A stretch of 64,000 nucleotides of DNA from Octopus vulgaris (lineage: Eukaryota): assembly GCA_951406725.2 (NCBI GenBank), contig OX597818.1, positions 88,040,001 to 88,104,000 of the forward strand. Reading direction: 5' to 3'. The position numbers were made by a program, and so were the translations under genes. Under the pieces are notes generated by a model. The model did no database searches. It worked only from the letters and a program-made list of their open reading frames with translations, and was not told where the DNA came from. The first letter of the stretch is position 1; the number at the start of each line of letters is the position of its first letter. This document shows positions 1,996-59,126 of this stretch, piece after piece.

Positions 1996-3708
1996 ACATC
2001 AACATCGAAGATGATGATATCACACTAGCCATTGATGAGATTGACACAAACTCAGCTGCTGGACCTGATGGATTCCCAGCGATCCTTCTCAAATCGTGCA
2101 AACGAGCCCTTGCAAAACCGTTACAGCTTCTTTTTCAGAGCTTTCTTGCAAGTGGTAAGCTCCCAGTCAAATTGAAAGAGGGGGTAATATGCCCTATCCA
2201 TAAGGGAGGTAGCAGAGCAGATGCTAAAAATTATAGGCCTATCTCTCTGACCTCACACATCAGCAAAGTCATGGAACGAATAGTCCGTAAGAAACTAATC
2301 ATGTTCCTTGAAGAAAATGACTTGCTGTCTGACACCCAGCATGGATTTCAACCAGGTAGAGGCTGCCTAACACAGCTCCTGCTAAACACTATGACTGGGT
2401 GTTGAAACAGCTACTAAATGGCTCAAATGTGGATGTAATATATCTCGACTTTGCAAAAGCCTTTGATAAAGTCGACCATGGTATGATCTGTCACAAACTG
2501 CGTGGTCTCGGCATAGGCGGGAAACTTGGAGAGTGGCTGCACAACTTCCTAAAAGACAGAAAACAGGCAGTTGTGAGCAATGGAGCCACCTCCAAGGAAA
2601 CGCAAATAACAAGCGGTGTCCCACAGGGCACTATCTTGGGGCCACTGATATTCATAGTGGCCCTTTCAGACATGCCTTCAGTTGCTACGATGACCACCCT
2701 TGCTAGCTATGCAGATGACACAAAAGTCTCCCACGCAATACAAAACCCTGAAAATATTGCGCATCTGCAACATGAGCTGGACACAATATACAGGTGGGCT
2801 GAGGACAACAACATGCAGTTTAATGCAGGTAAGTTCCAGGCCCTGCGCTACTGGCACACAAAGATAAATGACGTGAAGACTGGATACACTGGCCCAGGAA
2901 GAATTGCAATCCCTGAGTCAAAATCAGTGCGTGACCTGGGCATTGACATGAGCAATGATGCATCTTTCCAAATGCATATTGCTAATCTGGTGATAAAATG
3001 CAGACGGCTAGTTGGATGGATTCTCCGAACTTTCAGAACAAGAGAGAAGGAGACACTGATGGTCCTATGGAAAACATTCTTCCTCAGCCGCTTGGACTAC
3101 TGCTCCCAACTTTGGTTACCACACAATATAAAACTAACAGCAGAACTCGAAGCAATTCAGAGAAGCTACACAAAGAAAATCGTCTCAATGCAAAATATCA
3201 GCTACTGGGAAAGACTGAAGGTATTAAACCTCTTCTCCCTAGAGCGCAGGCGGGAGAGATATGCGGTGATATACATTTGGAAAATCCTGGAGGGTCTTGT
3301 CCCAAACTTTGGCATTAAAAGTTACTCCAACCACAGAACGGGGCGCCACTGCATGGTGCCAAGGATTCCAACATCACCATCAAAATACAGGTCCAGATAC
3401 TGCAACAGCTTGGGTTTCAGAGGACCACAGCTCTTTAACATCCTCCCTAAATGCCTGAGAGACTTACATGGTGTGGATGTGGGTTTCTTTAAAACTAAAC
3501 TGGATCTCTTCTTGTTGGGAGTCCCAGATGAGCCTACCTCACGACAGGAGACGCGGATGCGGGCAGCATCATCGAACTCCCTTGTTGATCAAGTGCCACG
3601 TATCAGAGGTGGATTCACAAATTAGTGTAGCTCATTCAGTGGTGGTGCCCCAGCATGGCCGCGGCCTTCGGGCTAAAACATTTTTAATGATTTAATGATT
3701 TAATGATA
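1996..3708 (+). mobile_element. 5'-truncated CR1-type LINE (RT domain, one frameshift near 2385, 3' UTR, (TTTAATGA)n tail)
   Basis: ORFs 1839-2405 and 2399-3625 contain GPDGFP, NYRPISLTS, YLDFAKAFDKVDH, SGVPQGTILGP and YADD. Closely related to the copy at 55.8-59.2 kb. Confidence 0.95.
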
Positions 3709-7088: not shown

Positions 7089-7136
<48 letters not shown>

Positions 7137-7139
<3 letters not shown>

Positions 7140-8082
7140 AATAAAATAGAACATATGCATATATATAAACATATATGTACGTACCTACCTCTACATGTAC
7201 ATATACACGCATATATGTGTACAGGACATCAAAAAGACGTCGAACACATAGAGAGACGAAAAACATAGACACAAACCAAGGAACAGGACAAGCAAAAAAG
7301 AAAAAAAGAGATACAGGACAATAAGCACAACGAAAAATCCCCTTCTTCAGTCGCTAAGGTTTCATCTACTCTACGTTTCGAAGGATAAAAGCGAGACGTA
7401 TACTTCGAAGAAACTTCCTTCCTGCGAAAAGCAAATCAATTAAAATTCTGAGATCTTTTCGCAGAGGGGTAAAAAATGGTAAAAAAAGCAAGACGGTAAC
7501 GACAGTACAAACATATAAACAGTAAAAAAAAAAAAAAAATTATATATAAACAGTTGAAAAATAAATATATAACAGTGAGAGACAGGACAAGGAGAACAAG
7601 ATAAGAAGGGCTGTTTACGTCAGACGAAAAAAGTAATGCAAACGCTGGATTATAGTGGACGACGAGAGAGAAAGAATGTCGACCAGTGGCCTTAGAAGGC
7701 GGGCGAGAAAAGACAGGATAGCAGTTACGACGGAAGTATCGTCGCAGATGGACGACGGGAATGGGGGAGGAGGAGCAAGAGGAAGAGAGAGAAGAAGGGG
7801 AATGGTGCGAGGAGACCATGAAGAATGGTGAGGGGGAGAGAGAGAATGAAGAATGAGAGAGAGAGGAAGAGACAAGTTAAGTGAGGGAAAAAGGACGAAA
7901 AAGGGAATGGGAGAGAAAGAAAGAAAGAAAGATGCAGAGTCGCGTGAGAGTTAATATCAAGGCTAACTTGATAAACAGAACAATCTTACTTAATAGGGTG
8001 CGTGCGTTTAGTCGTATAATATGTTAATAAAATAGAACATATGCATATATATAAACATATATGTACGTACCTACCTCTACAT

Positions 8083-8086
<4 letters not shown>
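7137..8086 (-). mobile_element. Non-coding terminally redundant element (886-bp period) with permuted hammerhead
   Basis: Identical 64-bp direct repeats at 7137-7200 and 8023-8086; (TA)n on both sides; no credible ORF. Confidence 0.8.
7339..7469 (-). ncRNA. Non-circularly permuted hammerhead ribozyme candidate
   Basis: Minus-strand order: UACGUC^UCGCU ... CCUUC GAAA CGUA ... AGCGA CUGAAGA AGGGG, with upstream CCCCU, a hairpin, and GAAGG partners. Confidence 0.8.
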
Positions 8087-8129
<43 letters not shown>

Positions 8130-16816: not shown

Positions 16817-17228
16817 CATGGTGTAAAAGAAAGGTTTCCCCGATTTCAAGGATTAATTGAAAGTACCAACTAGAGATTTCATTACCTTCGTGCGCTCAGG
16901 TCAGTGGATCCGTTTCAAGAAGAACAAGAAACATCCTGTGGGAGATGAAAAGTGGAACGGCTATTGAGAGGTGACTGCAGATTTACCAGGGTGCCAGGGA
17001 TTCTTTCCCATCCCAGTTACAAAAACGCCGGACATTTTGATGTGGTGTGAAGGAAAGAAAGACAAACATATGAAGATACATGAAAAGAATTTGTATTTCT
17101 ATGAAGTACATTAAATGCCATTGTGATTCAAGTGGTTTTGAAATACAAAATAAAGCTTTTTCATGCATTTTTATGTGTTTTTTTTTTATTAACCTTTGAA
17201 ATTAGGGCAACCTTTCTGCCGCACCCTG
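16817..17228. mobile_element. Tc1/mariner-type MITE carrying a captured HERO fragment
   Basis: Imperfect ~40-bp TIRs (CATGGTGTAAAAGAAAGGTTTCCCCGATTTCAAGG / CCTTTGAAATTAGGGCAACCTTTCTGCCGCACCCTG) with TA flanks; 16857-17061 copies 19489-19693. Confidence 0.7.
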
Positions 17229-17829: not shown

Positions 17830-20170
17830 GGGTAATTATAAAGCTGAAAATAAGGATTCCCTGAAAAGAGGAAAGGAGGAACAGCAGGAGAGAGAAGGAA
17901 AGGGTTACAAGTATTATTGGATTTTTCTTATCTGCTGAGAGTCTTCAGGCTAAAACGGATATGTTGATGAATCTGTTCAAAAGGCCGGAATCTTTGGGAT
18001 CTCTGAATGCGCTGAACACTGTTTTTCGATTTGAAAAGCGATCCAGGATGCGAAACAGAACAAGAGATGTCTGAACGTGGTATGGCTTGACCTAGCTAAC
18101 GTATAGGGTTCAGTGCCACACGAATTACTGATCACTTCCACATTCCAGACAGAGTGATCAAAATAATGAGGATGTAACTATGACAGTTTCGAAATGAGGT
18201 TTACAGCTGGAAATTTTACAACAGATTGGCACCGATTGGAAATTGGCATTGCTGGGGGCTGTACAATATCTGTCACGTAGTTTATCTTAGTCATGGAGAT
18301 GATTTCGAAAGCTGTGAATTTTTCGGAACAAATCGCCCATGTACAATCGCCTAAGAAAGCCTTCATGGATGAGGTAACACTTGAGACTAGACGAACTTGT
18401 GAGGTGGTCAAGAATGCGGTTTAGAGCAAAAAAGTCATGTAGTCTGTCATTTGTTGAGGGAGTGCAGAGAGAATTTAGGTTTCGAATAGCTGAAGAAAGC
18501 ATTCCTATAGTCAAAGAAGAACCCGTCAAGAGCTTGGGGCGAGTATACGCTGGAACATTGTCAGACAGAAGTCGCGGGATGGAAATTATGAAACAAACCG
18601 AGGCTGGATTATCAGCGATTGATAACTCGAAGTTGCTAAGTAACTATAAAATTTGGTGCTTGCAGTTCGACTTGTACCCGCGACTTTCGTGGCCTCTTTT
18701 AATATATGAGGTAGCCTTTAACGAGTTCAGATCATTGAACAAAGATGTAATGTGTTCATTAGAAAGTGGCTAGGCCAACCTCGGATGTTGAACAGTTCAG
18801 CTCTTTATCGTAAAAGAGGTTCGTTGCAGTTATCACAAGAGTCAATAGTCGAAATATATAAACTGGGGAAGATACGGACGGTGATGATGCTGAGAGAATC
18901 GAAGGACATGGAAATCAGGTGTAACCCACCAGAGGTGAAACCAGCCACGAAGTGGAAAGCAAAAGTAGAGACTGATGACATCTTGTCTTCTCTTGTACAC
19001 AGAGATATAGTGGGTGCAACGCAAAACCATTGGAAAGGACTTGGTTTTGGCGCAGATCTGTTCAGACCTTTTGCGAGTATGATGCGGAGGGAACGCAGAT
19101 CTGTTGTTAGCAACAGCGTCAAAACGAGAGGAGCAGAGAGAAGAGAGCTTCATTTATCCGATGTATTCAACAAGGACAGATGACGAGATGGGAAGATCAT
19201 GTTGTTGAGAGGAAAATAAGTTGGGATGAGATATGGAAGTGGACGACATTTCGGCTAAGTTTTCTGATTCGTTCATCCTATGATGTTTTGCCATCACCTA
19301 CGAATCTAGTAAGATGGAACGTTTCAGATAATGACATATGCAAATGCGGAATGGTCGGAACGCTGAAACATATTATTTCCAACTGTTCATTAGCATTGAA
19401 CAGGTATACATGGAGACACAACCTGGTCCTTAAGGTTATCTTCAATGCTATAAAGAACCAAATTCATCTCAACACTGAGCAAAAACCGTTGAAAGTACCA
19501 ACTAGAGATTTCATTACCTTCGTGCGCTCAGGTCAGTGGATCCGTTTCATGAAGAACAAGAAACATCCTGTGGTAGATGAAAAGCGGAACGGCTATTGGG
19601 AGATGACTGCAGATTTACCAGGGTGCCAGGGATTCTTTCCCATCCCAGTTACAAAAACGCCGGACATTTTAATGTGGTGTGAAGGAAAGAAAGTTGTAAA
19701 TCTAGTCGAGTTAACGGTTCCTCATGAAGATAACATGGACGCCGCTCGGGCTCGAAAGATTGACCGTTATGTAAACCTCCTCGAGGAATGTGAAGACGCG
19801 GGCTGGAAAGCGGAGCATTTTCCAATGGAAGACGAATGTAGAGGGTTATCGTTAGGCCTAGCTCATCGTTAAGTCAATACCACCATGGCCAATATCCAAA
19901 TTAGTGGCCAAGACTATCCACTGGATTTTTTAAAAAAGAGACGATGAGCGATGGCTAGAGAAATATTAAGCTATATCTAATAGCCAGTTGATCTAGCAAG
20001 CGTGGCTTCATATTAGTAAGGCGGGCCGGCACGCATTGATGCGTCGAGAGGTAGGCATTCTCTCCTGATGATCCAATATAGTTGCTGGCTTCCGGTAGCG
20101 GAATTCTCGACTGGTAGCACTTGCATGTATAAGTTGTTTGCAAGACATCACTGAGGGGAAAACTCAGTAT
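17830..20170 (+). mobile_element. Decayed HERO-clade RLE non-LTR retrotransposon (RT, CCHC knuckle, restriction-like endonuclease)
   Basis: GYVDESVQKAGI...VVWLDLANV*GSVPH; WSRMRFRAKKSCSLS; YDVLPSPTNLVRW; CKCGMVGTLKHIISNC; RYTWRHN; PDIL...VELTVPHED. Multiple stops and frameshifts. Confidence 0.88.
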
Positions 20171-22265: not shown

Positions 22266-22820
22266 GAGTGAGAGTGCAGTCCATGTCAACAAAGTGACCC
22301 CGGGGTAAAATATACGAAGCCCAGTATATCCATCATGACTACCCGTCTGATAAGGGTACACTAGGCACATGCATCACAACCATATGTGTGCGACATGGTG
22401 ATCTCAGATTAAGATAAACAGCACATGAGCTTGCAGGTGGGTCTCAGTTAGATTTTTCTTCAGGTCGAGTAACCCATCCCGCTCAAATGGTCGTTGAATA
22501 CGGGTTGTTTAAGGATGTTGAACGAGACACCCATGTTTCCAGAGGTGAATTATTCAAACCCCAAAGAATCCCTCTCAACACATGGCTATGATGCTCTCCC
22601 ACTACATCTGCTCGTAATCAGAGATGCACATATCGTCAGCCACTAAGGGATACGGTCAACTGGTAAAGGTTAAACAACTGACAAGCAAATCTGTGGTATT
22701 GAGCAGAATATTTGCTGTAGCCCATCTTTTATACCAAGACAAAACAATGTAAATGATAACACTTGCAATCAGTTAAGATCAGAAGCTACGAGAGCCACTC
22801 CCTGGTACTGCAGGGCATCA
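22266..22820 (-). mobile_element. ~555-bp non-coding interspersed repeat inserted in (TAA)n
   Basis: Near-full inverted homolog at 24497-25043; both copies abut trinucleotide microsatellites. Confidence 0.8.
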
Positions 22821-24496: not shown

Positions 24497-25043
24497 TGAT
24501 ACAGTACCAGGCAGTGGCTCTCGTGGCTTCTGATCTTAACTGATTGCAAGTGTTATCATTTACATTGTTTTGTCTTGGTATAAAAGATGGGCTACAGCAA
24601 ACATTCTGCTCAATACCACAGATTTGCTTGTCAGTTGTTTGACCTTAACCAGTTGACCATGTCCCTTAGTGGCTGACGATATGTGCATCTCTGATCACGA
24701 GCTGACGTAGTGGGGCAGCATCATAGCAATGTGTTAAGAGGGATTCTTTGGAGCTTGAATAATTCACCTCGAGAAAAATAAGTTTTTCGTTCAATATCCT
24801 TAAACAACCCTTATTCAACGACCATTTGAGCGGGATGAGCTACTCGACCCGAAGAAAATTCTAACAGGGCCTCACCTGCAAGGTCATGCGCTGTTTATCT
24901 TGATATGAAATCACCATGTCGCGCACGTATGGTTGTGATGCATGTGCCTAGTGTAATCTTATCAGACGGGTAGTCATGATGGGTATACTAGGTTTCGTAT
25001 ATTTCATCCCTGTGTCATGCACTGCTTTCCCACTCAATAATAA
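24497..25043 (+). mobile_element. Second copy of the ~555-bp repeat
   Basis: Reverse complement of 22266-22820 with a small 3' deletion; ends CACTC-AATAATAA. Confidence 0.8.
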
Positions 25044-26787: not shown

Positions 26788-26930
26788 CAATCGCTGCTAT
26801 TTGCCAAGGAATCTAATGCTCTTAGCTTAGTTTTTTCTTGTGGTTGACCAGATTGGAGCAATCTCGAGGATAACCAGCCGAAATTGCAAAGATAATCTGG
26901 AACTCGACTGAAGAAAGAAAACTCCGAATG
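26788..26930 (+). ncRNA. Non-circularly permuted hammerhead candidate
   Basis: GCAAUC^UCGAG ... CCAGCC GAAA UUGC ... CUCGA CUGAAGA AAGAAA, with an extra helix CCAGAUU/AAUCUGG. Confidence 0.72.
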
Positions 26931-27024
26931 ACCCGACCTTGTTTTCTTTGTATAGTCTATCTGGATGTTTTGCTGTCCCTTTCTTGTATCACCTCTCTGG
27001 ATGTTTTGCGTTCTTGTCCCATTT

Positions 27025-27096
<72 letters not shown>

Positions 27097-27283
27097 CTTC
27101 ACTACCCACAAGGGGCTAAACACAGAGGGGACAAACAAGGACAGACAAGGGGATTAAGTCGATTATATCGACCCGAAAGCATGGGATAAAAGGCAAAGTC
27201 GACCTCGGCGGAATCTGAACTCAGAACGTAACGGCAGACGAAATACGGCTATATATATAGCGGCGACGTACACTTTGGTCTCC

Positions 27284-27380
<97 letters not shown>

Positions 27381-27804
27381 CCCGCGTGCAGGCATAAACA
27401 CAGACGCAAAAATGCATTCAATTACACTAACAGCACAACTATGGATGTCGTAATTTCATTTCTATAATCAACAATATTTCGCTGCTTTCGCGTAATGTTC
27501 TTGACGTCAAAATTGAAAGTTATAGAGAACATTAATTTTGTATATCTTGGTTTGGCTTGTTTCAACCAAGTTGTCATCGATGTGGAGATATGGCATTTTT
27601 CTCACAGTGTGATAGTAAAAGAATATAATCATAGTTCAACCAACGAATTGTTCTAATTCAAAACACTTATAATTCAATCTTTTATGGGATAAAACAATCC
27701 AAATTTATTTTCATAGGACCAGAGATTTGATTTCTCAATAACAAATTCGTAGGGAAGCAACCGCAACACACGTACACCAAAGCAAGAATTGATAGTATTT
27801 TATT

Positions 27805-28405
27805 ATCCTACTCTAGGCACAAGGCCAGAAATTTTGGAGAAGCGGGGCCAGCCGTTTAGATCAATCCCAGTCCGCAAATCGTAGTTAATTTATCGACCTC
27901 GAAAGGATGAAAGCAAAGTCGACCACGGCGGAATTTGAACTCAGAACGTAACGGCAGACGAAATACCTATTTCTTTACTACCCACAAGGGGCTAAACACA
28001 GAGAGAACAGACAAAGACAGACAAACGGATTAAGTCGATTATATCGATCGCAGTGCGTAACTGGTACTTATTTAATCGACCCCGAAAGGATGAAAGGCAA
28101 AGTCAACCACGGCGGAATTTGAACCCAGAACGTAACGGCAAAAGAAATACCGTTAAGCATTCCACCCGGCGTGCTAACATTTCTTATTTCTTTATTGCTA
28201 AATATAGAAGGGCAAACAAGGACAGACAAAGGGATTAAGTTGATAACATCGACCCCAGTGCATAACTGGTACTTAATTTATCGACCTCGAAAGGATGAAA
28301 GCAAAGTCGACCACGGCGAAATTTGATTTCAGAACGTAAAGACACACGAAATACCGCTAAGATTTTCGCCCAGCGTGCCAAAGTTTCTGCCGGCTCACTA
28401 CCTTA
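27805..28405 (-). mobile_element. tRNA-derived SINE with Nin/Deu-type domain, internally triplicated
   Basis: Minus strand GGCAGAAAC.TT.GCACG head and GCCTTTCATCCTTTCG.GGTCGATAAATTAAGTACCAG domain, repeated three times. Confidence 0.8.
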
Positions 28406-32011: not shown

Positions 32012-32013
<2 letters not shown>

Positions 32014-32975
32014 TGAGGACTGGGGGTTTCGAATGTCCTGTCCGTGTTTGTTGTATCGTCTTCTAAGAGTTATACGTTCTTGTCCATGTTGTATTTTTCT
32101 ACATACCTTAACATATATTCCAGGCGCCACGTACCCTCTTAACATTAATGTGAGCACATATTCTTAATAACTGGTACGACTCTTTGTTTGTCTCTCTCTC
32201 TCTCTCTCACTTTTACTTGATCTGTCCCCTTCTCTCTCTACTCATCCTCTTTTTCTCTTCTCTTTCCTCTGATTCTTTGGTCTAATCTTCCACTACCCTC
32301 CTATTTCTTTGTCTCGCTCTGCACTCACAGGTCGCTCTTCGACACCCATCCCTTCTCCTCTCTGATTCCTTCTTTCTCTCTCTTCTCGCTCTTTGTCGCG
32401 TTTGTCCCTCCCCTCTCTCTCTCCTCTCTCTCTCTCTTCCGTTGCTTCTCTTTCTTTTCTTTTCTCTCTTCTCTGTCACGTGACTGCATGCCGAAATCTG
32501 CCTTTCAGCTTCTGACCAGCGTCGTGTTAACATCGTTGTTTTTCGTCCGCCGCTATAGGCATCGCCGATAAGGCTCCTTTCCTTGCGCCAGAGAAAAAAT
32601 TTGTTTGCTTGTTATCAGTCGTAAGACACTTGTTGTTGTTTTCACCGTTAATGCTTCTGTATTTCATGTTTCTGTATTCCATTATTTTTTCGTTTTTTTA
32701 TATTCGTCCCTTTTGCTGTCCTGGTGTCCGTATGCATTCGATCCTTCTTCCAGGAAATCTACGCTCCCAGCCTAGTTTTTCTAATGCTCGTTGCTTAGTT
32801 TTTCTTGGAGGGCTGGCCGTGATCTAGTAATCTCAAGATTAATCAGCCGAAATTACTACGATGATCCGGTTCTTGACTGAGGACTGGGGGTTTCGAATGT
32901 CCTGTCCGTGTTTGTTGTATCGTCTTCTAAGAGTTATACGTTCTTGTCCATGTTGTATTTTTCTACATACCTTAA
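32012..32975 (+). mobile_element. Non-coding terminally redundant element (864-bp period) with permuted hammerhead, copy 1
   Basis: 100-bp direct repeats at 32012-32111 and 32876-32975; (TA)n flanks. Confidence 0.85.
32735..32899 (+). ncRNA. Non-circularly permuted hammerhead candidate
   Basis: UAGUAAUC^UCAAGA ... UCAGCC GAAA UUACUA ... UCUUGA CUGAGGA. Stem III 7 bp, stem I 6 bp. Confidence 0.78.
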
Positions 32976-33046
32976 TATATATATATATATATGTATATAG
33001 ATACACACATACATATATGCATGCATACAGATATATATATATATAT

Positions 33047-33975
33047 AGGGTTTCGAATGTCCTGTCCGTGTTTATTGTATCGTCTTCTAAGAGTTATACG
33101 TTCTTGTCCATGTTGTATTTTTCTACATACCTTAACATATATTCCAGGCGCCACGTACCCTCTTAACATTAATGTGAGCACATATTCTTAATAACTGGTA
33201 CGACTCTTTGTTTCTCTCTCTCTCTCTCACTTTTACTTGATCTGTCCCCTTCTCTCTCTACTCATCCTCTTTTTCTCTTCTCTTTCCTCTGATTCTTTGG
33301 TCTAATCTTCCACTACCCTCCTAATTCTTTGTCTCGCTCTGCACTCACAGGTCAATCTTCGACACCCATCCCTTCTCTCTGATTCCTTCTTTCTCTCTCT
33401 TCTCTCTCTTTGTTGCGTTTGTCCCTCCTCTCTCTCTCTCTTCCGTTGCTTCTCTTTCTTTTCTTTTCTCTCTTCTCTGTCACGTGACTGCTGGCCGAAA
33501 TCTGCCTTTCAGCTTCTGACCAGCGTCGTGTTAACATCGTTGTTTTTCGTCCGCCGCTATAGGCATCGCCGATAAGGCTCCTTTCCTTGCGCCAGAGAAA
33601 TAATTTGTTTGCTTGTTATCAGTCGTAAGACACTTGTTGTTGTTTTCACCGTTAATGCTTCTGTATTTCATGTTTCTGTATTCCATTATTTTTTTGTTTT
33701 TTTATATTCGTCCCTTTTGCTGTCCTGGTGTCCGTATGCATTCGATCCTTCTTCCAGGAAATCTACGCTCCCAGCTTAGTTTTTCTAATGCTCGTTGCTT
33801 AGTTTTTCTTGGAGGGCTGGCCGTGATCTAGTAATCTCAAGATTAATCAGCCGAAATTACTACGATGATCCGGTTCTTGACTGAAGACTGAGGGTTTCGA
33901 ATGTCCTGTCCGTGTTTATTGTATCGTCTTCTAAGAGTTATACGTTCTTGTCCATGTTGTATTTTTCTACATACC

Positions 33976-33979
<4 letters not shown>
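33047..33979 (+). mobile_element. Same element, copy 2 (844-bp period)
   Basis: Direct repeats at 33047-33135 and 33891-33979; highly similar to copy 1. Confidence 0.85.
33739..33903 (+). ncRNA. Non-circularly permuted hammerhead candidate (copy 2)
   Basis: Same fold as 32735-32899; core CUGAAGA differs only at the variable N7 position. Confidence 0.78.
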
Positions 33980-42009: not shown

Positions 42010-42407
42010 CTTTTCTACTCTAGGCACAAGGCCCGAAATTTTGGGGGAGGGGAGCAGTCGATTAGATCGATCTCAGTACGCAATTCGTACTTAATGTATC
42101 GACCCCGAAAGGATGAAAGGCAAATTAGACCTCCGGGGAATTTGAACTCTGAACGTAAAGACAAACGAAATACCTATTTCTTTACTACCCACAAGGGGCT
42201 AAACACAGAGAGGACAAACAAGGACAGATAAACGGATTAAGTCGATTATATCGATTCCCAGTGCGTAACTGGTACTTAATTTATCGATCCCGAAAGGATG
42301 AAAGGCAAAGTCGATCTCGGCGGAATTTGAACTCAGAACGTAACGGCAGACGAAATACGGCTACGCATTTCGCCTGGCGTGCTAACGTTTCTGCCAGCTC
42401 ACCGCCA
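42010..42407 (-). mobile_element. Nin/Deu-domain SINE (family B) with internal duplication
   Basis: Head GGCGGTGAGCTGGCAGAAACGTTAGCACGCC; Nin-type domain present twice. Confidence 0.85.
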
Positions 42408-42424
42408 CAATAATGTCAATATTG

Positions 42425-42620
42425 CGAACGTGTTCTCCACTTGTTGTGTGTGGGTACCATCTTTCGAACTAATCAACCCAACGTTGTGTTTCAGCGTTCT
42501 ATGATCAAAATTATAACCAGCAATTTCAGGAATGTGAATGTACACCCTCCTCACATCGCTGAAAATTGTGGTTCCTGGAAGAATCGACCACCATATGCAC
42601 TCCTCTATTGTGTCACGGGA
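42425..42620 (-). pseudogene. Merlin (IS1016/ISXO2-like) transposase remnant
   Basis: ILPGTTIFSDVRRVY...HRTLKHNVGLIS..DGTHTQQVENTF matches the Merlin DDE motif PGT.I.SD.W.AY...H.TVNHS..FV...G.HTQ.IE..W. Confidence 0.75.
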
Positions 42621-42804
42621 AAATACAGTGTAAAATATAAGTTTGTAAACACAAGGTAAACCACGCGTAGCTGGACAGGAGAGCAACAGACGCGTAAGAA
42701 ACTTGGTGACAGCTTGGCTTGTTACTATGGAAACAGACACCAATACGTTTGTGGCCTTCGACTGACTAAAACAACCCCAAAATTTTCAAAATTTAAAAGC
42801 TCTC

Positions 42805-43185
42805 TTTACTCTTTTACTTGTTTCAGTCATTTGTCTGTGGCCATGCTGGAACACCACCTTTAGTCGAGCACATCGACCCCAGGACTTATTCTTTGTGAGC
42901 CTAATACTTATTCTATCGGCCTCTTTTGCCGAACCGCTAAGTTACGGGGACGTAAACACACCATCATTGGTTTTCAAGCGATGTCATGGGGACAAACACA
43001 GACCCACAAGCACAATTACATACATATATACAACTGGCTTCTTTCAGTTTCCGTCTACCAAATCCACACACAAGGCTTTGATTGGCCTGAGGCTATAGCA
43101 GAAGACACTTGTCCAAGGTGCCACGCAGTGGGACTGAACTCGGAACCATGTGGTTGGTAAGCAAGCTACTTACCACACAGCACCT
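42805..43185 (-). mobile_element. SINE family A
   Basis: Reverse complement of the family consensus. Confidence 0.88.
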
Positions 43186-45753: not shown

Positions 45754-45861
<108 letters not shown>

Positions 45862-46475
45862 TCCTTACTCCTTTACTCCTTTACTTGTTTCAGTCATTTG
45901 ACTGCGGCCATGCTGGAGCACCGCCTTTAGTCGAGCAAATCAACCCCTGGACTTATTCTTTGTAAGCCCAGTACTTATTCTATCGGTCTCTTTTGCCGAA
46001 CCGCTAAGTTACGGGGACGTAAACACAACAGCATCGGTTGTCAAGCAAAGCTAACACACACATACATATATATATATACATATATACGACAGGCTTCTTT
46101 CAGCTTCCGTCTACCAAATCCACTCACAAGGCATTGGTCGACCCGGGGCTATAGCAGAAGACAATTGCCCAAGATGCCACGCAGTAGGACTGAACCCGGA
46201 ACCATGTGGTTGGTCAGCAAGCTACTTACCACACAGCGACTCAATATATATATTCTTTTATTCTTTCATTTATTTCAGTCATTTGACTGCGATCATGCTG
46301 GAGCACAGCTTTTAGTCGAATGGATCGATCCCAGGATTTATTCTTTGTAAGCACAGGCTTTAGTCGGCCCGGGGCTATAGTAAAAGACAGTAGCCCATGG
46401 TGCCACGCAGTGGAACTGAACCCGGAACCATGTAGTTGGGAGGCAAGCTTCTTACCACACAGCCTTGCCTTCGCC
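45862..46475 (-). mobile_element. Two tandem SINE family A copies (second internally deleted)
   Basis: Consensus matches at 45862-46240 and 46250-46475. Confidence 0.85.
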
Positions 46476-47614: not shown

Positions 47615-47990
47615 GAACTTGCTTACCAACCACATGGTTTCGGGTTCAGTGCCACTGCGTGGCACCTTGGGCAAGTGTCTTCTATATAGCCTCGGGCCGA
47701 CTAAAGCCTTGTGAGTGGATTTGGTAGACGGAAACCGAAAGAAGCCTGTCGTATTTATGTATATGTATATATATGTATGTGTTTGTGTGTCTGTTCCCCC
47801 CCATCATCGCTTGACAACCGATGCTGGTGTGTTTACGTCCCCGTAACTTAGCGTTTCGGCAAAAGAAATCGATAGAATAAGTACTATGCTTACAAAGAAT
47901 AAGTCGTGGGGTAGATTTGCTCGACTAAAGGCTGTGCTCCAGCATGGCCGCAGTCAAATGACTGAAACAAGTAAATGAGTAAAAGAGTAA
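47615..47990 (+). mobile_element. SINE family A
   Basis: Consensus match; slightly 5'-truncated. Confidence 0.88.
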
Positions 47991-48005
47991 GAAAGTATGT
48001 ATGTG

Positions 48006-48038
<33 letters not shown>

Positions 48039-49962: not shown

Positions 49963-50236
49963 AAGGCGGTGACATAGCAGAAACGTTAGCACGCCGGGCG
50001 AAATGCCTAGCGGTATTTTGTCTGCGTTACGTTGTGAGTTCAAATTCCGCCGAGGTCGACATTGTCTTTCATCCTTTCGGGGTCGATAAATTAAGTACCA
50101 GTTACGCACTGGGGTCGATGTAATCGACTTAATATCTATGTCTGTCCTTGTTTGTCCCCTCTGTGTTTAGCCCCTTGTGGGTAATAAAGAAATAGGTATT
50201 TCCTCTGTCTTTTTGTTCTGAATTCAAATTCCACCG
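49963..50236 (+). mobile_element. Nin/Deu-domain SINE family B
   Basis: Head plus CTTTCATCCTTTCGGGGTCGATAAATTAAGTACCAG. Confidence 0.85.
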
Positions 50237-51499
50237 TATATTTTATTTTTTTAATTAAGTATTTAATATAGTTATCTTTAATATGCTGTTGAATTAGGGT
50301 GAGTTTAACTTTTATTATTAATTTTCTCTTTCAGCTTTAATTAACTTGCTTTCTACTTTTTTATGCTTTTCCTTTTTAGTTGCTTTCCTTTTCTTTTTAG
50401 TTAACTATCTAATCAGGCTAGTTTATTAATGTGTCATTTGCTTCAGATATATGCATATAAATTTATTGGGGCAGGAATATAGTCATTTTGGCTGTGTCTC
50501 TATGGGCAGACCTGAAGGCATGTAGTAAGTCTGTCCAGAAAAGGCAATGGTTAAAAGTGCTTATATTCTAAATTTACTTCTTAAATTTCAAAATTAATTA
50601 AAAGGGATTTTTCATAAACAAATTTATATTAATGGGATGTAGGTAATTTTAATTTGTGTATATCTGATATGCTTTTATAATTATTGTTGATTAGCAGTGG
50701 TTAGTGCTATTATCACCAACTCAAAATCTAGGTTACTTAAGGTGAGCCTGATAACTGATGGTTTTGGGGTCTTGTTTGTAACTTTTGATGAGCCATGGTG
50801 CAACCAACAAGATGGTAAAATTCCCTGCCTGTAATTTGGTGTGGATGGGTAAAATCAAATAATTCAATCACAACATATATTTAAATTAAACTTTGAAAAA
50901 AGTTGAAATATTATCATCACTTACATGGAAAAATTGAAATATTATCTTTCAGTATTTTATAAGTTAAAATCTTAAATTATTAATTGACACATTATTAATT
51001 ATCTTATAACAGCAATGCCTGGAAAAATCATGGATTACATGGAAAAATGCGAGCATGAAAAAAAATAAGTTATTACACCTGTGAAAGTATAGGACAAGTT
51101 ATTACTTTTAGTAAAGTAAAGAATAAGAAACTTTTACTTAAAATATTACAGCTAAAATTAAAATTTGAATATTAAAAGTGATTTTATTATAATTTTCAAA
51201 TATAGTAGAATTTGGCTAAATTACTACATTAAATACACAAAAAGTGACTAATTAGACAAACGTACAAATTAGATGAACAGTTTTGTACAATAAATTTAAA
51301 AGATGAGAACTGTAAAGAGTGATAAATTAGAAGAACTGGCATTTTTTGGTGCAATATTTTAAGGAAAAAGTTTCTTATTCTTTACTTCACTAGAAGTAAT
51401 AGCTTCTCCTATACTTTTCCAGGTGTAATATCTTGTCCTGTACTTTTCCAGGTTTATAATCTTAACACTATTACTTTTCATGCTGGCACATTTTCCCAC

Positions 51500-51811: not shown

Positions 51812-52672
51812 ACGTGGTGTGATGGGTAAATTATAGCCACTTTATATTCTTAATTTTGTGAATGCATATTGTTTGCTTTTGATTTTGTCGACTACACAGT
51901 ATATTAGAGTCATTCGGGCACCGCATGTGCGGCAAACAGCACCATAACTCAATTCACTCTGCCAGAAATTTGGAATCGACATGCTGTACTGCTTGGCGTT
52001 CGCTCGGGAAGCTCTAATACAAACATTTCAAAGTGTTTGGTGGTAATCTGAGGACATGTACCGAGAGTGATAAAAATCAAACATCCAGTGAATATCATAG
52101 TGTTTCGAGTGACCACTAGGGATGGCGACGTTATACCTCCATTCATCTTCTCACACGGCCTCGGACACAACACGGAGGCCTACATCAAGAGCCTGGAGGG
52201 GATAGTGCTGCCCTAGGACAAGATAGTAGCTACTGGAAGACCCTATATCTGACAACAGGACCCTACATCTTTGCGACACAAGCAGGAAAACCCAGTCATG
52301 GTTGTCAGACAATTTTCTGCGACCACATCACCCCTAAATTCTGGCCACCTCACATCCCAGACTGCAACACCCTCGATTATTATGTGTGAGGGGCAACTGA
52401 GCGAGACACCAACAAAACTCCTTGTAACACCAAAGATAAACAGAAGGCAGAGATCATGGGAGCATCTACTAACTTAAACAAGGAGACCGTCCAGAAGAGT
52501 TGCAGGAGACCCGTAATCGTCTGGAGGTCGTGGTTAAAGCCAAATTGCGACTTTATTGAATACTTTTTAGTATTTTAAGATATTTTTATGTAATTTTGAT
52601 AAATATATTTGTTAAAATGAGATGTCAGTGCTATTTTATTTATTTCTGCGTACAATTTATTCACTGCATTAT
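51812..52672 (+). mobile_element. maT/DD37D-like transposon, internally deleted
   Basis: QQDPT..TSRKTQSWL..FWPPHIPDCNTLDYYV*; degenerate TIR-like ends. Confidence 0.7.
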
Positions 52673-52682
52673 ATATATACTC

Positions 52683-53088
52683 TTTACTCTTTTTCTCTTT
52701 TACTTGTTTCAGTCATTTGACAGCGGCCATGCTGGAGCACAGCCTTTAATCGAGCAACTCGACCCCGGGACTTATTCTTTTGTAAGCCCAGTACTTATTC
52801 TATCGGTCTCTTTTGCCGAAACGCTAAGTTACGGGGACATAAACACAACAGCATCGGTTGTCAAGCAATGGTAGGGGGACAAACACAGGCACACAAACAC
52901 ACACACGTATATATATACATATATACGACGGGCTTCTTTCAGTTTCCGTCTACCAAATCCACTTACAAGGCTTTGGTCTGCCCGAGGCTATAGTAGAAGA
53001 CACTTGCCCAAGGTGCCACGCAGTGGGACTGAACCCGGAACCATGTGGTTGGTAAACAAGCTACTTACCACACAGCCACTCCTGCGCC
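52683..53088 (-). mobile_element. SINE family A, full length
   Basis: Consensus match. Confidence 0.9.
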
Positions 53089-53105
53089 TATATATAAAGC
53101 TTAGA

Positions 53106-53145
<40 letters not shown>

Positions 53146-53631
53146 CTGTCTGTCTGTCTGTGTGCATCAATAAAACTCGAGAACAACCAGACGGATGTCA
53201 TCCAATTTTACACATGCTTTACTTAAGATCCATGCAGTGTCAGGGGCCAAAATATTTTCCAACTTCTTGCCTAATGCGAGCCCGGAGCAATCTCTTATCT
53301 CTTATCTCTTACACTGATTCCGTATTACTTGTCAAAAGTGAAACAATAACATCTCTATTAATACTGTCACTATTATATGGTTTCAATTTCAGTTACTTTC
53401 AATATATATTTGTATACATGTTTGTATATGTCTGTGAATATATATATATATGTGTGTTTGTGTGTGTGATTTCGTTGCCTTCCTTCTTTTTACCATATAC
53501 GGGTTACAAATACTTTTGCTTGTGGAGACTTATTTTTGTAGTAATAGTAATGGTAACCTATTTGGCTGCTATTTCTAATATTTTCGGTATGTGGTTTAAG
53601 CAACTTGTTGCAAATAACCCTTTATTATAAT

Positions 53632-53853: not shown

Positions 53854-53854
<1 letters not shown>

Positions 53855-53971
53855 CCCTCTGCAAGGGAATTTTATTTAATTCCCTCGCAGGAAGGACCGG
53901 TCCGACGAGCGTGTCCTGTCCTTACCTTCGAAACACGCATGGAGTCGAACCGGGGACAGCTGATGAAGGGG
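53854..53971 (+). ncRNA. Non-circularly permuted hammerhead ribozyme candidate (best copy)
   Basis: GCGUGUC^CUGUCC UUA CCUUC GAAA CACGC ... GGACAG CUGAUGA AGGGG. Perfect core, 6-bp stems I and III. Confidence 0.85.
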
Positions 53972-54187
53972 AATTTTCCTTGTGTTGTTTGTCCTGTATT
54001 CTGTTTTTCGTTGTTAAAAAAGTCCGTTCCCTTGTTTTTATGTTTTCGTTTCTCGTTGATTTCTACGTCTATTTGTGGTGTCCTGTACTCACATATATAT
54101 ATTTGTATATGCATGTATATATACATGTAGATGTAGGTACGTACATATATGTATGTATGTATGCATATACTTTATTTATTACACACT
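53854..54187 (+). mobile_element. 5'-truncated relative of the 7137-8086 element
   Basis: 3' part (TACATGTAGATGTAGGTACGTACATATATG) matches the 7137-7200 repeat in reverse complement; (TA)n flanks. Confidence 0.75.
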
Positions 54188-55780: not shown

Positions 55781-56179
55781 CGGGTGTGTATGTTCTACCT
55801 GAGAGGTTCCTGCTGGCATGGAAAGGAAGGTGCAGGCTGCCGCTTTGCACATCGGGGACCCTGCCACAGAGACACGAGGCAGATGGACAAACCATCAACA
55901 CAAAGAAAAGGGATGGACCACGCACCACCTGCCCCAAAGCGGAGGTACGCAGATGTTGTGCGCGCCACAAACAGCCAACATGATGTTGTCGAAAGAGCAG
56001 CTGCTGAGCAACAATCTTTTTTGTGCATGGCACAAAAGATTGTACAGCAGCTGACCTGGCTTCATCAAACCCAAGCCCGCAGGTGGGACTACCCACTATA
56101 TACCAGACCACCACAGCAAACAGACACAGGATGGACACCGCCGGCAACAACGTACACCTCACCTCGATACTCCTACTGA
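55781..56179 (+). CDS. LINE ORF1 C-terminal fragment with CCCH zinc finger
   Basis: [23 protein letters not shown] (C-x7-C-x8-C-x3-H), RRYADVV, QSFL; overlaps the start of ORF2. Confidence 0.7.
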
Positions 56180-59126
56180 ATATCAGAGGACTGCAAACAC
56201 TCAGTAACAGGACAAAGATCCCGTTCCTGAGAGACTTTGTTGCATGCAATCAAGTCTTATGCATAGCACTTACAGAAACGCACCTGAAACCGGACATAGC
56301 AGATGCGGAGTTACACATACCACAGTATGCTGTACTACGGACCGACAGGAAAGAAAGTAGTGATGGAGGTGTTGCTATGTACATCCGTGAGGACCTCACA
56401 CCCCAGGTCCTCTTGTCATACTCAAACTCGGTGTGTGACACACTAATTGTACATATTAGGCAACTTGATGTAGTTGTGTGTGCTACATATCGCCCTCCAG
56501 ATGCCCCAAGCCATGTGGGCAAGTTTGAAGACTGCCTTATAAAAATAGAAGAAATTCTAACCACATTAGAACAACACATAGGTGTGCTTCTTATGGGAGA
56601 CTTCAATCTGCCCAATGTCAGATGGCCCGAGGGCCTTTCTCTCCCAGGAATGACAAGATGTGAACGAGGACAGGCGAGGTCCCTCCTGAACCTCATCAAC
56701 ACCCTGTACATGGAGCAGGTAATACTCCAACCAACCAGGGCAGGTAACACACTGGATCTCTGCTTCACAAATGACATGGATCTCATCCATAATGTGAAAG
56801 TGACACCGACACTACTCTCGGATCACAACATGATAGAGCTGACCATGTACGGGCCAAAAGAGTGCACGGACATGCAGCCTACAAGAAACCCTCAAAATCT
56901 TTCCAGCTTGAACTACCATAAGGCAAACTGGAAACAAATTGAGAAAGAGATCCTCAAACAAAACTGGCCTAAATGTCTCTCCTCGCCAGACATCGACGTG
57001 AAACTTCAACAATTCATGTCTGTAATGCAAGCCATATGCTACAAATGTGTCCCAGAGAGAAAGGCCACTGTACACAAGAACAAAATCCCCAGAGAGAGGA
57101 AAATTTTAATGAGACGGCGTACGAAATTTTCAAATCGCCTAAACAAACAGATTGAAAGCAGTGAAAAGTCCCGCCTGAAAATAAAACTGTTGGAAATCGA
57201 AAAATGTCTGCAACGCTCCCATGAAAAAGAAAGAGCAGACAAAGAAGCCTGGGCTATAGAAAACATAAAATCTAACCCCAGAGCTTTCTACAGGTATGCC
57301 AAAGAAACAGCTACAGTGCACTGTAGAATAGGGCCACTCCTCGAAAAGGATGGCACACTTACAGGAAAACCAATGAGGGTAAGTGAAATACTGAATGAGC
57401 AATTCAAGAGTGTTTTCACTCCACCCTTGGGCATCTCCAAATCACCAATCCAACTGACTTTTTTACCACTGCAGATATAAAATCAGAGGCGGCGACGATA
57501 GATTACATCGATATAAAGGAAGACGATGTAACCAAGGCTATAGATGAAATGAAAACAGACTCAGCTACTGGCCCCGATGGATTCCCGGCAATCCTCCTAA
57601 AAGCATGTAAGAGAGTCCTAGCAAGACCACTGCAGTTCCTCTTTCAGAGCTTCCTTGCAGCTGGCAAACTTCCAGGAAAACTGAAGGAAGGTAAAATATG
57701 CCCCATTCATAAAGGAGGTAGCAGAGCGGAAGCCAAGAACTATAGACCTATCTCTCTGACCTCACACATCAGCAAGGTCATGGAACGAATAGTCAGAAGG
57801 AAGCTGATCACCTTCCTTGAAGAGAATGACTTGCTGCCCGACACCCAACATGGTTTCCGACCAGGGAGAAGCTGTTTAACTCAGCTCCTACAACACTATG
57901 ACTGGGTGCTGAAACGGCTGCTCAACCACTCAAATGTGGAAGTGATATATCTCGACTTTGCAAAGACCTTTGATAAAGTCGATCATGGAATGATATGTCA
58001 CAAACTGCGTGATCTCAACATAGTTGGAAAACTGGGAGAATGGCTTCATGACTTTCTGAAGGATAGAAGTCAGGTGGTAGTAGCCAAAGGGGCCACCTCC
58101 AAAAACACACAAATAGTGAGCGGTGTTCCGCAGGGCACTGTTCTGGGACCACTACTGTTCATAATGGCCCTCTCAGACATGCCCTCAGCCACGCAGAGAG
58201 CCACGATCACAAGTTATGCAGATGATACAAAAGTTTCACAGGCAATACAGAACCCTGAGGACACTAAACACCTGCAATGTGAGCTGGACGAAATATACAA
58301 GTGGGCTGAAAAGAATAGCATGCAGTTCAATGCTGAAAAGTTTCAAGCTTTATACTATCAGCATGCAAAACTGAATGCAATACCCAATGAATACACTGGA
58401 CCCGGAGGGATTGCAATCCCAGAGGCACAATCAGTGCGTGACCTGGGTATTCACATGAGTGATGACGCGACCTTTCATGTACATGTTGCTAAACTGACAA
58501 TGAAATGTAGACGGCTGGCTGGATGGATTCTTAGAACCTTTAGAACAAGAGAACAAGAAACCATGATGGTCCTCTGGAAGACACTTGTCCTAAGCCACTT
58601 TGACTATTGCTCTCAGCTATGGTCACCATCCAGTGTCAAGTTGATCACAGAACTGGAGGCGATCCAACGAAGCTACACAAAGAAGATAGCCTCTATGCAG
58701 AATGTAAGCTACTGGGAAAGACTCAAGAGATTAAAATTATATTACCTGGAGCGTAGGCGGGAAAGATATGCCATAATATACATCTGGAAGATCCTGGAGG
58801 GAAGTGTCCTGAACTTTGGCATCGAGAGTTACGCAAATGCCAGAACTGGGCGCCACTGCGTGGTGCCTAGGACTCCAAACCTGCCATCAAGATGTAGGAC
58901 AAGATTCTGTGATAGCCTGGGCTTCCGAGGCCCACAGCTCTTCAATATCCTCCCGAAGAACCTGAGAGACCTGCATGGGGTGGATACAGATGTCTTTAAA
59001 ATGAAGCTGGATCTCTTCCTGTCAGGTGTCCCAGATGAACCAACTTCACGGCAGGAGGGGCAGATGAGGGCAGCTGCATCGAACTCTCTCATGCACCAAA
59101 TAGCAGTTGCTAGAAAGCCTCCATGA
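56131..59126 (+). pseudogene. LINE ORF2 (endonuclease-reverse transcriptase), split by a frameshift near 57430
   Basis: ORFs 56023-57480 and 57549-59126; probable start MDTAGNN at 56131. Confidence 0.92.

Follow-up and report, generated by a model that had tools for sequence, protein, structure and literature searches.

Hammerhead ribozymes of types I, II and III are nested three-way junctions in which the conserved blocks follow the cyclic order C-G-S. The reverse order defines types SGC and CSG, and RNAs of both types cleave in vitro (PMC10085705). As far as that publication describes them, no insertion longer than 1–2 nt is known between CUGAnGA and its adjoining stems. Insertion of Penelope-type elements (PLEs) is described as starting inside the RNA (PMC8557442, PMC11167929), and for a green-anole PLE it proceeded in vitro without a need for hammerhead cleavage (PMC11167929). 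In the Naiad clade, Craig et al. (2021) reported no canonical hammerhead; Naiads were flagged as ‘HHR_core’ or ‘HHR_half_core’, eight of them carrying the latter label, for which no fold is given in the parts of the publication considered here (PMC8557442).

In this study, a microsatellite-rich stretch of animal DNA (64,000 nt from Octopus vulgaris, referred to as the window) was analyzed. Two copies of a motif, located at 32735–32899 and 33739–33903, contain the complete set of hammerhead core bases and show the order of the pseudoknotted S-G-C type instead of C-G-S. Based on sequence interpretation, it is proposed that this S-G-C hammerhead, opened at A9/G10.1, likely self-cleaves after AUC (32832 and 33836) and thereby would cut transcripts of a non-coding retroelement that is likely mobilised by a Penelope-like machinery. 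The following features were assigned, the coordinates being those of copy 1 except in the last entry:

32735–32747, plus strand: 5' strand of the closing helices P0/Pa; the partner is 32886–32899, just after A9
32748–32810, plus strand: hairpin Pb (strands 32748–32757/32801–32810), ending directly before G10.1
32811–32816, plus strand: stem II 5' strand GGCUGG (G10.1 onwards), detached from CUGAnGA
32817–32824, plus strand: 5' strand of the clamp helix (stem I/II clamp; the ‘I’ helix of type SGC, termed scaffold in the first-pass annotation), pairing with 32863–32869
32825–32838, plus strand: block S, consisting of a stem III strand, U16.1, C17, the predicted cut at 32832/32833 and a stem I strand
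32839–32858, plus strand: 4-nt link between stems I and II, followed by block G (stem II 3' strand, GAAA, stem III strand)
32859–32870, plus strand: internal loop (kink-turn position, degenerate in family A) and clamp helix 3' strand
32871–32899, plus strand: stem I strand, CUGAGGA (C3–A9) and Pa/P0 3' strand
32825–32831/32852–32858, plus strand: stem III of copy 1
32833–32838/32871–32876, plus strand: stem I of copy 1
32832, plus strand: C17 of copy 1
32843–32848, 32849–32852 and 32877–32883, plus strand: UCAGCC, GAAA and CUGAGGA of copy 1
32886–32899, plus strand: closing 3' strand of copy 1
33739–33903, plus strand: second full copy of the predicted ribozyme (copy 1 shifted by +1004) with CUGAAGA, the family majority, and a predicted cut at 33836/33837

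From 5' to 3', the stem II 5' strand and the first clamp strand precede block S, the 4-nt link and block G; the second clamp strand, stem I with CUGAnGA and the closing helix follow. What distinguishes the motif from type SGC is an opening of the chain within the core, the 5' strand of stem II being located upstream and A9 being connected to G10.1 through two additional helices. Since Pa, which begins at A9 or two bases after it, and the hairpin Pb, which stops at G10.1, close this gap, the motif is interpreted as an SGC hammerhead re-opened inside its core. In families C, D and L the gap has no linker at all. The features of the hammerhead class core, namely CUGAnGA, GAAA, U16.1-A15.1, H17 and G10.1-C11.1, are present. 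Rfam returned no match in the window at gathering thresholds, and an unconstrained fold of 32730–32905 lacked stems I and III of the active fold.

Only three of 166 positions differ between the copies, namely 32772 in the hairpin loop, 32881 (N7) and 32887, where a G-U pair is replaced by A-U. The first-pass annotation had named N7 as the sole difference within the core. All helices named there were recovered at the same places in both copies, and its reading as a permuted hammerhead with predicted cuts after 32832 and 33836 survives the tests described below. That the motif is present twice is correct for the window, not for the genome, where its family (family A) has 1783 first-look candidates. 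Likewise, the lack of sequence relation that had been noted holds for the families at 53915 and 7395 (minus strand), not for the family at 26863 (family B), with which family A has the hairpin loop and stem II in common. Two points go beyond the first-pass annotation: the order is that of type SGC with the core split at A9/G10.1, and the carrier is a high-copy retroelement.

A pairing descriptor identified five such motifs from four families in the window, and each of the window's families has 1,600–2,600 first-look candidates in the 2.8-Gb assembly. Searching the genome with the loose pattern YCGAAAY-N(18-31)-CTGANGA yielded 29,952 matches versus 2,293 for the reversed control; this excess of ~27,700 (13-fold) points to a set of related copies that numbers roughly 28,000. 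When 1 Mb was sampled evenly, profiles detected 11 homologous pieces, and the loose pattern found three family matches versus ~10 expected; therefore, the copies are unevenly spread. Three identical motif copies at C1:57292696, 57300827 and 57308984 are spaced by ~8.1 kb and probably lie within a larger tandem duplication. A pattern scan of IMG/VR returned five loci, three of which were inspected and resemble chance matches in coding DNA.

In order to refute a ribozyme, the first-pass annotation had asked whether core positions change as fast as loops across families. With CUGAnGA left free, the first 100 of 6,763 matches, assessed by eye, showed a change in 2 of 600 invariant-core cells, which left the ribozyme reading unrefuted; in the same first 100 matches, also by eye, N7 differed in 16 and the base following A9 in 31. 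Within one subfamily, 10 of 600 core cells and 12 of 400 linker cells were changed (first 100 of 2,823 matches, by eye); six of these ten core changes affect the CpG G12, and one is an allowed change of H17. This weak contrast suggests that the subfamily core decays about as fast as the linkers, as neutral decay after insertion would give. H17, which the search descriptor constrains, was C, A or U and never G in 15 representatives.

For the pairing analysis, 133 distinct pattern matches from fetched loci were considered, 77 of which contain block S and 75 of these without a microsatellite cut just upstream; the 56 matches lacking block S, many of them truncated or chance matches, were left out. 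The stem II 3' strand finds a partner of at least 5 bp upstream of block S in 63 of the 75 distinct non-truncated matches, and a partner of at least 4 bp directly after A9 (offset 0) in none. When strands were swapped between families, the upstream search succeeded in 42 of 336 cases, and the corresponding block S control passed in 10 of 190. Stem II occurs in at least five distinct sequence versions; the 15 representatives compared include one decayed copy (L264) whose assignment is due to chance. Stems I, II and III covary across families. In natural, hand-picked copies, the four-helix structure is paired in 88% of cells for 15 A-type copies (two-sided change at 16 of 25 pairs) and in 91% for 13 C/D/L-type copies (15 of 20 pairs), and the clamp helix reaches 82% with two-sided change at five of eight pairs. 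None of 500 shuffles reached the result of either group; related sequences can beat such a shuffle control, and slid controls nonetheless fall to 13–47% paired.

The motif copies of the window and their carriers are distributed as follows:

32012–32975, plus strand: family-A non-autonomous element, insertion 1; it is truncated at its 5' end, exceeds one unit of ~0.87 kb (~100 nt occur at both ends) and ends in (TA)n
33048–33979, plus strand: insertion 2 of family A, 5'-truncated, longer than one unit, with the same fixed 3' end followed by (TA)n
32013–32035, plus strand: partial third core (CUGAGGA and Pa strand), located in the repeated 5' end of insertion 1, with the same private variants as 32877–32899
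26790–27030, plus strand: family B copy sharing this fold, with a cut predicted near 26862; an older relative of family A
53854–54090, plus strand: family C copy with the same fold, predicted cut near 53914
7135–8090, minus strand: family D element longer than one unit with the same fold, predicted cut near 7395

At tandem loci, the unit measures 874–896 nt between cut sites and is non-coding and pyrimidine-rich without any ORF. The 3' end of family A is fixed ~145 nt downstream of the cut in all 25 distinct loci and is followed by (TA)n. Family D ends ~260 nt after the cut, again before (TA)n, in 11 of 13 loci, the exceptions being one with a ~30-nt tail and one unresolved. At L054/L055, a family-D insertion runs ~30 nt past the usual 3' end, resembling the optional PLE tail. 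The 5' ends are scattered; 12 of 26 family-A insertions exceed one unit, arrays contain up to four cut sites, and inverted head-to-head copies are present in (TA)n. An internally fixed 3' end, truncated 5' ends, copies in tandem and inverted order, a tail and a microsatellite target identify the carrier as a Penelope-type element.

Rare variants common to both repeats of one insertion were found in four A and two D cases, and unshared ones in 15 A and 14 D cases, three of those 15 A variants in fact being shared within insertion 1 of the window. The shared variants fit a circle copied more than once, and a tandem source locus would also explain them. Furthermore, a four-copy array (L017; C4 near 70.157–70.160 Mb) consists of units with different polymorphisms, two of which are common to the window copies; the differences among its units suggest template switching or recombination. 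Folded as circles, A and D monomers are weakly paired and not rod-like. The top matches of families A and D are 98–100% identical, in contrast to the cephalopod Naiads, which were called long inactive (PMC8557442). Contigs of the runs X13, X16, X17 and X19 (organisms B, C, D and E) cover, at 80% likeness, 26–27 of the 30 bins into which the family-A unit was divided, and family A is therefore probably common to related species. In run X1, one contig spans the predicted cut, and several runs show higher depth downstream of it; because other families share this half, nothing was deduced from either.

Moreover, further repeats were recorded in the window. Two pieces of an APE-RT LINE family with broken frames (2028–3579 and 56008–59126; Pfam RVT_1 and Exo_endo_phos) are 77% identical. 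By eye, the broken frames at 18722–19872 resemble a non-LTR element, namely its C-terminal zinc knuckle and restriction-like endonuclease; 19111–19869 had no Pfam match. A 205-nt direct repeat occupies 16857–17061 and 19489–19693, and a 516-nt inverted repeat (22295–22810 and 24502–25017, 91% complementary, 1.7 kb apart) possibly represents a DNA transposon or fold-back element. At least two abundant SINE-like families are present at 27092–28398, 42015–43181, 45830–46242, 47618–48026, 49977–50237 and 52670–53147.

In order to evaluate traces of cleavage, 5' ends beside (TA)4 were counted genome-wide with fixed patterns, yielding 11 at −2, 102 at +1, 163 at +7 and 24 at +30. Starts of truncated copies are about nine times as frequent at the predicted cut as at −2, on which grounds self-cleavage is considered likely. 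Since the patterns for −2, +7 and +30 each pool two positions via a shared A, the step at the bond is if anything understated; moreover, −2 matches (TA)n better than +1, yet has fewer starts. The excess of +7 over +1 implies that microhomology with (TA)n or polymerase pausing contributes. Either may raise +7, but neither predicts the drop exactly across the bond. Among the matches listed and judged by eye, 18 of 20 A-type insertions abutting (TA)4 within 30 nt start at +1 to +7, six of them exactly at +1 (7/31 expected under uniform truncation, binomial p = 3e-10), and 21 of 24 C/D-type insertions start at +1 to +10 (10/31 expected, p = 3e-8). Pooling the 31 positions upstream of the cut gave 82 minus-strand rows in one subfamily group. 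A locus-based tally, the copies of which partly overlap the listed set, comprised six starts within 3 nt of the cut, ~13 just after it and four in the 37 nt before it. The 5' ends of loci L001–L060 are not at the cut; these loci had been selected for spanning it. The 5'-end step is thus an indirect sign of cleavage in vivo, cleavage itself being predicted.

These observations depict a fold that is real, conserved and probably catalytic. In the proposed mechanism, Pa and Pb would stack and hold A9 next to G10.1, the short link together with the clamp helix would substitute for the loop 1–loop 2 contact, and a kink-turn would make folding within one molecule possible by bending stem III back towards the clamp. 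The monomers of ~0.87 kb released by cleavage would carry a 5'-OH. A Penelope-type reverse transcriptase would then prime on (TA)n at the fixed internal site and either run off the cut end, giving copies that start at +1 to +7, or continue on a circle or uncut multimer, giving copies longer than one unit. In family B (26790–26925 of the window; L062), the strand before Pb can pair over 8 bp with G5–A9 plus three bases, possibly an off state that would hide the core.

Competing readings of these data differ in what they make of the fold. Chance arrangement of short motifs in a repeat is practically negligible as an explanation: the strict descriptor had only three matches (one real) in the evenly sampled 1 Mb versus 0–2 in shuffles, which would suit chance, but the 13-fold genome-wide excess over the reversed pattern and the covariation of all four helices contradict it. 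Very improbable, too, is an ordinary type-SGC hammerhead in which stem II forms with the strand after A9 despite one extra base, the pairing of the upstream strand being an alternative. In the C/D/L-type families this offset-one strand does pair over 4 bp with the stem II 3' strand in 80% of cells, with a covariation score above all 500 shuffles, and 4 bp are reached at offsets 0–2 in 30 of the 75 matches. This pairing is, however, mostly G-U, and a fifth pair fails in 11 of 13 copies, whereas the upstream strand is 95% paired with mostly Watson-Crick changes. In the A-type families, to which both window copies belong, pairing after A9 comprises 20% of cells and is no better than in shuffles, and the downstream partner is also missing, by eye, in coral and octopus Naiad motifs.

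The remaining readings accept the split fold and concern its activity. Stem III and the clamp form one interrupted long hairpin, joined by 0–3 and 4–6 nt, the far ends of which should lie apart in a hammerhead, a puzzle also flagged for some SGC RNAs (PMC10085705). At this joint, a kink-turn was scored, with no null control, where a bulge of 3 nt between stem III and clamp precedes tandem G-A/A-G pairs; the standard signature was found in 46 of 75 matches, and U instead of G at position 2n characterizes family A (eight distinct matches). Eight D/L-type matches have a symmetric, loop E-like AGUA/GAAG loop, and 13 show other patterns; at L046, L249, L256, L264, L265 and L284, this purine-rich loop occupies the place of the kink-turn of other families. 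A kink-turn encloses an angle of 50 degrees. In a rough triangle drawn with this value, the ends come to lie ~20 Å apart if kinked and 36–45 Å (~40 Å) apart if straight. Folding as one molecule is therefore plausible, in this geometric model, for the kinked families and unexplained for family A with its U at 2n and for the D/L-type families with their symmetric loop. The straight-loop families accordingly give rise to a reading in which the RNA self-cleaves only as a two-unit assembly: the 20-nt loop with blocks S and G of one unit would dock on the stem II 5' strand and CUGAnGA of another, multimers being cut and monomeric circles spared. The long hairpin with its short joints, the probably straight D/L-type loop, the degenerate kink-turn of family A and the dimeric hammerheads known for newt, ASBVd and PLE motifs (PMC4209133) speak for it. 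It is nevertheless regarded as unlikely, given that the standard signature occurs at exactly that joint in most matches and that single-copy SGC constructs cleaved, concentration dependence not being mentioned in the available portion of that report (PMC10085705). A conserved pseudoknot that binds or pauses the reverse transcriptase, with the hammerhead-derived core as a non-catalytic relic, appears improbable. In its favour, split-core activity is without precedent in PMC10085705, given the published limit of 1–2 nt, insertion of the green-anole PLE in vitro did not need cleavage (PMC11167929), and an enrichment of 5' ends at +3 to +7 could result from polymerase pausing within a tight pseudoknot. 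Against this stand the ninefold lower 5'-end frequency just across the predicted bond despite the better (TA)n match at −2, invariant core bases beside stems that all change between families and a free N7, the absence of G at the descriptor-constrained H17 in the 15 representatives, and the intact-core CSG form in nematode Naiads. A self-cleaving split hammerhead thus remains the preferred reading.

Selected places in the Naiad consensus sequences were inspected for the same fold, with record names deduced from the header that comes next. The split fold is present in the two records that end ahead of the headers Naiad_Ovul and Naiad_Omin, where it is identical to family K of the genome, the octopus Naiad version with 227 pattern matches (PMC8557442). 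Inspected by eye, CTGATGA places 26–40 (15 of 62) of the supplement include seven with split order. Pa and Pb are complete in three Acropora records and in one further record; one record comes from Octopus, and two cases are weaker. Among these 15 places, two nematode records represent type CSG with contiguous block C, and six places lie in coding or unrelated sequence. The two nematode records are those ending before Naiad_Hcon and Naiad_Hpol in File S5, and their 3' ends were read with a clamp helix (PMC8557442). CTGAAGA places 7–28 of 43 revealed no clear further motif. Family A and the octopus Naiad tail have the fold in common, not the sequence; sequence identity applies to family K only. 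Having no ORF, the family A unit lacks the N-terminal GIY-YIG and RT of Naiads, no Naiad ORF was found next to motif matches, and no autonomous element with family A sequence was found.

A young PLE with many intact copies (L199:1242-6457 and L196–L210) encodes a 479-aa ORF1 without Pfam match and a 781-aa RT-GIY-YIG frame with a Neptune/Nematis-type linker; it shows partial tandem ends and resides in (TA)n. As carrier it was rejected, since its 20 short and 20 long loci contained no motif beyond unrelated insertions; a role as driver is possible. At L192:120-1800, a C-type element (minus strand) lies head to head with an internally deleted PLE coding fragment (plus strand) within (TA)n, the junction being a short palindrome near 1125–1131. 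This single locus suggests that a related PLE may drive the C-type element. A broader conjecture, for now doubtful, is that the whole Naiad lineage and its non-autonomous riders use an unrecognised, reverse-wired hammerhead whose opening point differs, nematodes having the CSG form and corals, octopus and others an opening within the catalytic core, and that the straight-loop octopus families would work only across two units, as a switch that cuts multimers and spares monomer circles.

If correct, the proposed reading would add a hammerhead topology beyond the six permutations thought possible and break a block assumed to be unbreakable. It would place a ribozyme that is not a circular permutation at high copy number in an animal genome, published SGC examples coming from metatranscriptomes only. 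Moreover, it would supply the ribozyme of the Naiads, which were reported without one, and reopen the inference that Naiads thrive without it. Since standard descriptors and Rfam miss the fold, counts of invertebrate ribozymes would be underestimates. With the 5'-end step at the scissile bond, genomes alone would suffice to test what cleavage contributes to Penelope-type transposition, and the free ends at A9/G10.1 would give engineered RNA switches a new site for insertions. This topology was found nowhere in the literature searched, a coverage that leaves aside subscription papers, bioRxiv supplements and reference 13 of PMC13725137 (hammerheads with additional helices).

Among the described systems, type SGC (Eckert et al., 2023; HRIMA-1 and variants, PMC10085705) has the S-G-C order, the clamp helix ‘I’ and the core bases in common with the octopus repeat, as well as the short connection between clamp and stem III; the link between stems I and II measures 3 nt there and 4 nt in the repeat. 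The repeat differs by block C being split at A9/G10.1, by the upstream stem II strand and by the added Pa and Pb, so that the chain ends lie inside the core instead of at the clamp/stem III joint (PMC10085705). Furthermore, type SGC was found only in metatranscriptomes, whereas the repeat is animal DNA with tens of thousands of copies, known here from sequence alone (PMC10085705). Type CSG follows the same reverse cyclic block order, to which the two nematode Naiad consensus 3' ends were assigned, thereby linking the topology to the same retroelement clade; its block C is contiguous and known from two metagenomic examples only, in contrast to the split block C of octopus (PMC10085705).

An insertion at the A9/G10.1 step is tolerated in other hammerheads as well. 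A viroid hammerhead has one extra base there. In the PLE min-HHRs, one base between positions 9 and 10.1 is conserved (PMC4209133), whereas the octopus motif accommodates a two-helix domain and the chain ends at this place. As regards the carrier, non-LTR retrozymes (PMC7229834; Li et al., 2026, 10.64898/2026.07.22.740005) likewise consist of non-coding head-to-tail units with one hammerhead each, thousands of copies and a Penelope-like link. Their units of ~300 bp contain a nested type I hammerhead and are expressed as circular RNA, whereas the octopus units of ~0.87 kb contain a pseudoknotted, split one and are known from DNA and contigs (PMC7229834; 10.64898/2026.07.22.740005). With the Naiads, the octopus element has (TA)n targeting, tandem and inverted insertions and the optional 30-nt tail in common, and the split fold recurs at the 3' ends of octopus and coral Naiads (PMC8557442). 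As predicted here, the octopus motif is like a type-SGC hammerhead within a non-LTR retrozyme, yet fails a defining feature of each.
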